From assembly GCF_003334765.1 (NCBI RefSeq), contig NZ_QOWT01000117.1: DNA of 514 bases; one strand, written 5' to 3'. The first letter of the stretch is position 1; the number at the start of each line of letters is the position of its first letter. The position numbers and the translations under genes were made by a program. The stretch comes from Escherichia coli. Its GTDB lineage: Bacteria; Pseudomonadota; Gammaproteobacteria; Enterobacterales; Enterobacteriaceae. Below, one piece after another: positions 1 through 514 of the stretch. The notes beneath the pieces were generated by a model. The model did no database searches. It was given only the letters and a program-made list of their open reading frames with translations, and was not told the DNA's origin.

Positions 1-233
1 ACCGTCAGAGCTAATAATTTGTCGACTGCATCGCCATCCGCAAGGTAACTGTAGAAGTGTCTTAAGAGAGTGCATTGCGTTGCCCATAACTTAAAACAGC
101 TTAGATCCTTGTTCGCCAGAAAGTTTCATCCATTTTCTTCCACCCAGGTTGCGGAAGAACCACTTTTCATCCGTCGTTGACAGATGTGAAGTATGCGGGA
201 GAAAAAGTGAATATCTAACTGTAATAACTCAGA

Positions 234-251
234 CCGGTACGAGTACTCGGG
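234..251 (+). repeat. Copy 1 of an 18-bp imperfect direct repeat, CCGGTAC-N4-ACTCGGG (ccggtacgagtactcggg)
   Basis: Matches 423-440 at 15 of 18 positions; mismatches are confined to the central 4-5 nt. Contains the 10-bp perfect palindrome cgagtactcg (240-249). Confidence 0.45.
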
Positions 252-276
252 ACGTCTACAATCATTCAGGGCAAAG

Positions 277-285
277 TGCTAAAAT
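277..285 (+). promoter_or_regulatory. Candidate extended -10 element (TGcTAAAAT) on + strand
   Basis: TG at 277-278, one base, then taaaat (280-285), which matches TATAAT at 5 of 6. The only -35-like hexamer is tctaca (255-260, 4 of 6) at a poor 19-bp spacing. If active, transcription would start near 292-294 and read into the pyrimidine-rich tract. This assumes a bacterial sigma70 context that is not established. Confidence 0.2.
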
Positions 286-291
286 TTCTCT

Positions 292-301
292 ATCCCGGGA
301 T
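292..301. other. 10-bp perfect palindrome atcccgggat (possible dimeric protein-binding site or hairpin)
   Basis: The sequence equals its own reverse complement and is centred on a CCCGGG core. A related half-site tcccgg recurs at 321-326. A single 10-bp palindrome is near chance expectation (about 0.5 per 514 bp), so confidence is low. Confidence 0.25.
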
Positions 302-392
302 GCCCCTACCAACGCAGCACTCCCGGAGATATCATTACAGCTCTGCAACTGATTTCCGCGACTGAACCGCTCAGTTCCTATCCTTCCAGTTG

Positions 393-411
393 CCCTCCTG
401 CCCCCCCTCCC
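393..411 (-). other. G-quadruplex-type motif on minus strand (gggagggggggcaggaggg), with C-rich i-motif complement on plus strand
   Basis: Plus strand 393-411 is ccctcctgccccccctccc. Its reverse complement gives four G3 tracts with loops of 1, 1 and 5 nt, matching the G3+N1-7 x4 pattern. A further C4 at 421-424 could serve as an alternative tract. The motif is seen directly; folding in vivo is not demonstrated. Confidence 0.6.
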
Positions 412-422
412 TGCTGTATACC

Positions 423-440
423 CCGGTACCACAACTCGGG
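423..440 (+). repeat. Copy 2 of an 18-bp imperfect direct repeat, CCGGTAC-N4-ACTCGGG (ccggtaccacaactcggg)
   Basis: Matches 234-251 at 15 of 18 positions, 189 bp downstream. The flanking cccg (422-425) and cggg (437-440) are self-complementary, giving a 4-bp GC stem. Confidence 0.45.
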
Positions 441-504
441 CAGCACTTTTCCCCCTCATAATCTTCGTCACACATCACACAAAACCACTTTCTCACCTTC
501 ACCG

Positions 505-510
505 TATAAT
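505..510 (+). promoter_or_regulatory. Consensus TATAAT hexamer at the right window edge, no recognisable -35
   Basis: Exact tataat at 505-510. Upstream at 17+/-1 bp is aaaacca (no TTGACA similarity), and there is no TG at -15/-14. Any transcript or gene it served would lie beyond the window. Confidence 0.15.
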
Positions 511-514
511 CCGG

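Follow-up and report, generated by a model that had tools for sequence, protein, structure and literature searches.

A length-variable poly-G tract at the 3' end of a zinc-ribbon gene in Escherichia coli island DNA: probably a slippage hotspot in a dispensable protein tail

A run of seven cytosines in E. coli DNA raises the question whether it works as a switch, acting on a gene or on the end of a protein through changes in its length, or whether it is simply a place where replication errors are tolerated. The stretch of DNA analysed here, 514 nucleotides long and referred to below as the window, belongs to a chromosomal island of E. coli: it is 100% identical to many E. coli chromosomes, and 2,820 of 5,426 complete genomes carry at least 80% of it. 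The reading that we favor, with a probability of roughly 0.8, is that the run is an ordinary hotspot of slipped-strand insertions and deletions, tolerated in a dispensable C-terminal tail, and not an ON/OFF switch.

The existence of the run, as reported by the first-pass annotation of this DNA, is easily confirmed, since positions 401-407 of the + strand read CCCCCCC, edged by G400 and T408, and this is the sole C7/G7 of the window. Dinucleotide-preserving shuffling of the window produced a C7/G7 in 13 out of 200 shuffles, with a mean of 0.10 runs per shuffle, and related island DNA amounting to about 951 kb has approximately 7 G/C runs of at least 7 nt per 100 kb, about half of which are copies of this same tract. 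The presence of the run is statistically only modestly unexpected; its notable aspect is that its length is polymorphic from strain to strain.

Concerning the gene that hosts the run, the same annotation had seen no adjacent open reading frame whose frame the tract obviously controls. This does not hold, as the tract sits inside an annotated, Pfam-supported CDS of the minus strand (Table 1), being a G7 on the coding strand, and its length sets the frame of the final nine codons of this zinc-ribbon gene. The gene exceeds the right end of the window and was overlooked because the ORF list, limited to the window, gave for it just a 43-aa fragment with an internal GTG start. Its coding strand ends with AGC AGG GA[G GGG GGG] CAG GAG GGC AAC TGG AAG GAT AGG AAC TGA, tract in brackets, which encodes S R E G G Q E G N W K D R N stop, the TGA corresponding to window 371-373. 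The G7 is thus made up of the third base of codon 124 and the whole of codons 125-126 (E124-G125-G126) out of 135, and is followed by nine codons and the stop. On the 135-aa product, Pfam places DUF7828 at residues 4-89 (E = 8e-31) and Zn_ribbon_11 at residues 93-125 (E = 1e-17), the tract being located exactly at the end of the latter match (residue 125), with both domains and all the zinc-ligand cysteines upstream of it.

NCBIfam and PADLOC gave no match for the gene or for its two neighbors, PHROGs matched only the Gp2-like neighbor, to a family of unknown function, and the literature retrieved with the Pfam names DUF7828 and Zn_ribbon_11 holds incidental mentions only. In NZ_AP021935.1 (locus L001), where the window lies at 8001-8514, the genes upstream are annotated as a 'putative zinc ribbon protein' and an 'inovirus Gp2 family protein'. 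The three form a conserved trio (L001 8371-9996), in which the inovirus Gp2-family gene is followed by two tandem zinc-ribbon genes that overlap by 13 nt, are about 29% identical and show the architecture CxxC...WFEH...CxxC...CxxC.

Table 1. Coordinates of the tract, its gene and the associated features (window positions unless a locus is named).
Feature	Position	Strand	Basis
3' part of the CDS of 'zinc-ribbon domain-containing protein' WP_001221619.1, 135 aa	371..514, to 778 in genome	-	annotation, Pfam
Homopolymer (C7 on +, G7 on -)	401..407	- (coding)	sequence, translation, allele alignment
Frame-0 tail QEGNWKDRN	374..400	-	homologue comparison, AlphaFold2
+1-frame stop TAG, C8 alleles	378..380	-	RefSeq protein, translation
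-1 frame of C6 alleles, stop 262-264	262..400	-	ORF list, annotation, translation
G-rich context GGGAGGGGGGGCAGGAGGG, four-run G-quadruplex motif, window haplotype only	393..411	-	allele alignment, ViennaRNA
Degenerate ISL3-family insertion sequence, end	1..184 (L001 6468-8184)	-	annotation, database matches
C7/C8 loop run elsewhere in the island	L022 9822; L025 9570; L026 6863; L090 7858	minus in L026	

The three possible frames of the tract lead to three products which differ solely after G126, beyond the last zinc-ribbon strand. The C7 product (135 aa) ends in SREGGQEGNWKDRN, with 9 residues past the repeat. The product of C8, and by prediction also of C5, has 133 aa and a tail of 7 residues, reads SREGGAGGQLEG at its end (...REGGAGGQLEG) and corresponds to RefSeq WP_001221622.1. 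Finally, C6, and by prediction also C9, gives ...SREGG plus 45 residues, for a predicted 171 aa, this -1 tail being a read-through of former 3' non-coding DNA. RefSeq and PGAP treat the C6 alleles as frameshifted or incomplete pseudogenes and the C8 alleles as a 133-aa protein. Homologues and paralogues have nothing in common past CGTGxYS(R)E. In the AlphaFold2 model, which is of moderate quality (mean pLDDT 65.5), the last strand comprises residues 122-124, and pLDDT is below 50 for 127-135. In addition, a widespread allele (WP_001221631.1, 134 aa), in which C6 is followed by TA, has the +1 frame fixed and is annotated as intact. Because of the lack of conservation among homologues, the low pLDDT and the stable +1 frame of the C6-TA allele, the tail is apparently dispensable, and a frameshift at the tract, judging from sequence comparison and structural model, appears not to be an ON/OFF event.

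The first-pass annotation had also proposed that the site is variable in length. The comparison of strains supports this, since the tract is not invariant among related strains but occurs as C6, C7 and C8, in complete genomes as well as in metagenome contigs. Among E. coli genomes sampled at even intervals, the matches to window 185-514 have lengths of 330, 332, 333 and 334 nt, and when representatives are aligned every length difference falls at the tract or its immediate edge. The window allele can be written as CTG-C7 (135 aa); L003 has CTGCAG-C7, which is in frame and gives 136 aa, L004 and L006 have CTGCAG-C6, called 'frameshifted' by PGAP, and L002 has CTGCAG-C6-TA, giving 134 aa with a different tail, while the paralogue L005 shows the interrupted run CCGCCCCCACG. 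Two kinds of change adjoin the tract in L002-L004 (window 398-408), namely a 3-bp CAG indel that adds one Leu, and the replacement of a C by TA. The frame of C6-TA is that of C8, and this allele may have arisen from C8 through substitutions that interrupted the run.

Allele frequencies among the 5,426 complete genomes were obtained with haplotype-specific probes of 94-96 nt, taking identities of at least 99% as exact matches, as one difference in 94-96 nt already drops the identity below this value; short exact probes were avoided because the BLAST low-complexity filter would mask the C7 seed. The window haplotype is found with C7 in 691 genomes, C6 in 17 and C8 in 6, and the commonest CAG (sister) haplotype with C7 in 750, C6 in 223 and C8 in 4, so that about 15% of the 1,691 haplotype-matched genomes are not C7. 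The 95-99% identity band of the window haplotype comprises 47 genomes, of which 23 are, by our estimate, tract-length variants (C6/C8), which means that one site gives about half of the variation in 95 nt. An independent pattern scan of metagenome contigs gave 120 loci, counting orthologue and paralogue, and yielded as orthologue alleles CAG-C7 (19 times), CAG-C6-TA (5), CAG-C6 (2), window-type C7 (2) and CAG-C8 (1); the two CAG-C6 copies, L014 and L025, have different flank haplotypes, and the CAG-C8 copy is L022. Over all the loci examined, the paralogue has C5 in about 90 copies and C6 in one (L009).

Could these differences be artefacts of sequencing or assembly, the true tract being an invariant C7? 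As a matter of general knowledge, homopolymers are error sites for long-read and flow-based platforms, and two of the variant genomes of the window haplotype are NCTC assemblies, which presumably come from a long-read platform; both are candidates for the homopolymer errors that could account for some C6/C8 calls in long-read-only assemblies. Against this, many laboratories contributed to the 223 + 17 assemblies with C6, among which is that of strain 042, whose genome we take to have been Sanger-sequenced; C8 is common to the O157 strains 493/89, F3113 and LSU61, and several genomes encode its product, which RefSeq lists as a non-redundant protein. C6 and C8 appear in the metagenome contigs too, among them SPAdes-style NODE assemblies. 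We consider an invariant tract highly improbable, and artefact alone does not account for variants that recur across many assemblies and metagenome contigs. Differences in length are also found between copies with identical 910-nt flanks, as in L131 and L132 (C6) vs L133 and L134 (C8), and in L025 (C6) vs L026 and L090 (C7); between L025 and L026 the tract is the only difference over 2,238 nt. Likewise, ten complete genomes with C6, C7 or C8, including 042, APEC IMT5155, Nissle 1917, O104:H4 and ST648, can be aligned over 2,730 nt with gap columns at the tract only.

How often did the change occur? The flanks of the major haplotype are star-like, with 1-9 SNPs, and no SNP is common to the sampled C6 alleles; since none of them distinguishes C6, the 223 C6 genomes may go back to a single event, or to a small number, that later spread through descent or through horizontal transfer. 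The frequency of C6 on this haplotype, 23%, could also reflect selection. As both C6 and C8 occur on each of two haplotype families, at least about four events are needed, and L014 may represent a fifth, independent one. A single length is found within each set of similarly named strains (JE86-ST02/ST05, RM13745/RM13752, the BH100 substrains and the three O157 strains with C8), which, as these sets are possibly clonally related, suggests slow rather than rapid change. Overall, the polymorphism observed in the population suggests that the tract may be hypermutable.

Another alternative is that the tract is a selected switch of the kind described as C-terminal phase variation, whereby reversible G6/G7/G8 slippage would produce three C-termini differing in activity or partners. 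The locus formally resembles the systems reported in H. canadensis (Snyder et al. 2010) and N. gonorrhoeae (Zelewska et al. 2016, PMC5320596; NGK_1211, G6/G7), with which it shares a poly-G of 6-8 near the 3' end, three different tails and a length that varies between strains, these being the features used in Neisseria (PMC5320596); moreover, all three frames occur in nature and two of them are annotated as intact proteins. The host, however, is E. coli, where SSR switches are rare and SSRs generally avoided (PMC3315296), and the product looks like a cytoplasmic zinc-ribbon protein, not a surface or competition factor. Maintenance of the tract among related gene copies, a criterion that we add here and that lies outside the published definition of C-terminal phase variation, is not observed, as the abundant paralogue (about 90 copies) and the C6-TA allele both have interrupted runs. 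The tails are not conserved among homologues and are modelled at low confidence, the -1 tail merely reads through DNA that was formerly non-coding, the strain sets that may be clonal each keep one length, and neighboring G/C runs of at least 7 nt are equally variable. Taken together, this makes a C-terminal switch very unlikely. In its most specific form, that of a selected, reversible switch in a CP4-type island making three DUF7828/zinc-ribbon isoforms, we regard the proposal as very doubtful; if true, it would amount to SSR-mediated C-terminal phase variation where SSR contingency loci are deemed rare, and in a gene family without known function. Classical contingency loci (pilC poly-G, Moxon-type; PMC5320596, PMC10710837) share with this locus a G tract within a CDS, frameshifting by slippage and a length that differs between strains (C6, C7 and C8 here), but there the repeat lies in the promoter or near the 5' end of the CDS, so that the shift abolishes the protein, whereas here it occupies codons 124-126 of 135 in a window with no promoter-like site. 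With both Pfam domains upstream of the tract, an ON/OFF effect would not be expected, and the caution of the first-pass annotation over phase variation was appropriate. The run could instead act through RNA or DNA structure, either as a programmed -1 ribosomal frameshift heptamer (G GGG GGG) or as the core of a G-quadruplex with an influence on expression or stability. Formally, frame-0 GA-G GGG GGG agrees with the pattern X XXY YYZ, and 45 codons can be read in the -1 frame before a stop, but efficient bacterial -1 frameshift sites are A/U-rich heptamers, and we know of no all-G heptamer acting as an efficient one; in addition, no conserved -1 product was found, the -1 tail being an unconserved sequence of non-coding origin. 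As for the G-quadruplex, the coding strand of the window haplotype fits G3N1G3N1G3N5G3, and ViennaRNA gives -20.5 kcal/mol with G-quadruplexes enabled vs -3.4 kcal/mol without them; the commonest haplotype nevertheless has GGAAGG instead of the fourth G-run, which means that the motif lacks conservation. To these structural readings we give almost no credence.

Generic slippage in a dispensable tail, the reading that we prefer, would work as follows. During replication the nascent and template strands would misalign within the run (slipped-strand mispairing), so that one G:C pair is gained or lost. Such indels would normally be purged by selection; here, we propose, they persist because the run lies past the last structured element of the protein, where a -1 or +1 shift would merely swap a 9-residue, unconserved and probably disordered tail for one of 45 or 7 residues. 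The outcome would be the standing C6/C7/C8 polymorphism seen in natural E. coli populations. Both slippage as the mutational mechanism and the near-neutrality of the tail variants are what we infer from the distribution of the alleles and the features of the tail.

Both parts of this reading have counterparts in the literature. In mutation-accumulation work on E. coli, indel rates grow exponentially as runs become longer, with G:C runs as hotspots (PMC8510543, citing Lee et al. 2012). The tract behaves like the mononucleotide runs of the Streisinger model, with single-base gains and losses restricted to the G:C run, and the dependence on length is alike as well, the C5 of the paralogue being almost invariant (a variant in 1 of ~91 copies of the interrupted run) and C7 varying in 3-23% depending on the haplotype. 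The phenomenon is the same in kind, although it is seen here as natural population polymorphism and there in mutation-accumulation experiments. SSR frameshifts at C-terminal ends are known to be under reduced selection and to allow new C-termini (Lin and Kussell 2012, PMC3315296), and the present locus does the same, with a tolerated C-terminal indel, an alternative stop and a novel C-terminus; it is a clear single-gene case of that genome-wide trend. There is no sign of a new mechanism at the tract.

Other repeats of the island show similar behavior. Between near-identical contigs, C7/C8 and G7/G8 variants are found at two further sites. One is a C7/C8 run enclosed as a loop by a perfect inverted repeat of 8 bp, CTTCAGGAAT-Cn-TCCTGAAG (Table 1), and the other shows G6-G8 variation in GGTGGCC(C)A-Gn-(T)ACAGG. 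Near-identical contigs also differ by one unit of a 4-nt tandem repeat (GTCA/CAGT, L025 5217-5223). As would be the case for a generic hotspot, indels are concentrated in the run, runs of similar length likewise vary, and the shorter run varies less. The tract is not special, given that the run of the paralogue is interrupted and that other G/C runs of the island vary too.

These results bear on how the locus is annotated, since one base decides whether the gene is labeled as intact, with a product of either 135/136 aa or 133/134 aa, or as a 'frameshifted/incomplete pseudogene'. Because both domains are kept, the pseudogene label is probably too strong and overstates the loss of function. The locus is a clean natural example of a C-terminal homopolymer that yields alternative protein tails in E. 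coli.

Other kinds of element were considered for the window and discarded. A phage origin was rejected, with no phage match for the window; an RNA gene or structured element was rejected on the grounds that Rfam gave only a chance-level sR2 match (E = 0.55) and that the window holds no tRNA; and a promoter-spacing switch was rejected because the tract sits within a CDS and the window shows neither a sigma-70-like promoter nor a terminator. The downstream neighbor of the zinc-ribbon gene is the ISL3 segment, in which the transposase CDS, reaching window position 87, is pseudogenised and interrupted by a stop, and the island around the window is rich in IS elements in L001. Plasmid matches are essentially confined to this segment (window 1-184), which matches many E. 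coli and E. albertii plasmid records at 97-99%; altogether 1,383 plasmid records were matched, largely from Klebsiella, most of them in the 80-90% identity band, for which match coordinates are not listed. In K-12 MG1655, no homologous DNA was found in the first ~6 kb of the CP4-44 region (2,062,000-2,072,000). The island flanks of 042, IMT5155, O104:H4 and ST648 (in the set L137-L146) differ by only 1-9 SNPs in 2.7 kb, and that of Nissle 1917 by about 37. As the first four are, we believe, of different phylogroups, such near-identical flanks hint that this part of the island has recently spread horizontally or recombined.

It should be noted that the zinc-ribbon gene varies in other ways as well. 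A second, shorter homopolymer pair, T4 then C5 at window 447-455 (coding A4/G5), coincides exactly with the point where protein cluster P0011 (171 aa, 10 members) diverges (...YEG followed by KSAARVVVPGY...), which agrees with a G5-to-G4 frameshift, by which the zinc ribbon would lose its second CxxC. The homologous proteins P0023, P0030, P0033, P0038 and P0039 have different N-terminal 60-75 residues (MNGIKTGLGITPGEH...) joined, at a point that varies among them, to a C-terminal half identical to that of the zinc-ribbon protein, and look like mosaics from recombination between paralogous copies. Two proteins that are 92% identical to the E. coli protein, P0013 and P0041, are labeled as Veillonella sp. 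(MAG) and Pseudomonas aeruginosa, labels that probably reflect contamination or mis-binning. Finally, in some C6 strains, IS100 is inserted in the 5' part of the gene, as in L141 (RM11911) at 2395-2907 and in L006 (ETEC1706), and in RM11911 PGAP calls an 'intact' protein of 170 aa, with the extension read in the -1 frame.
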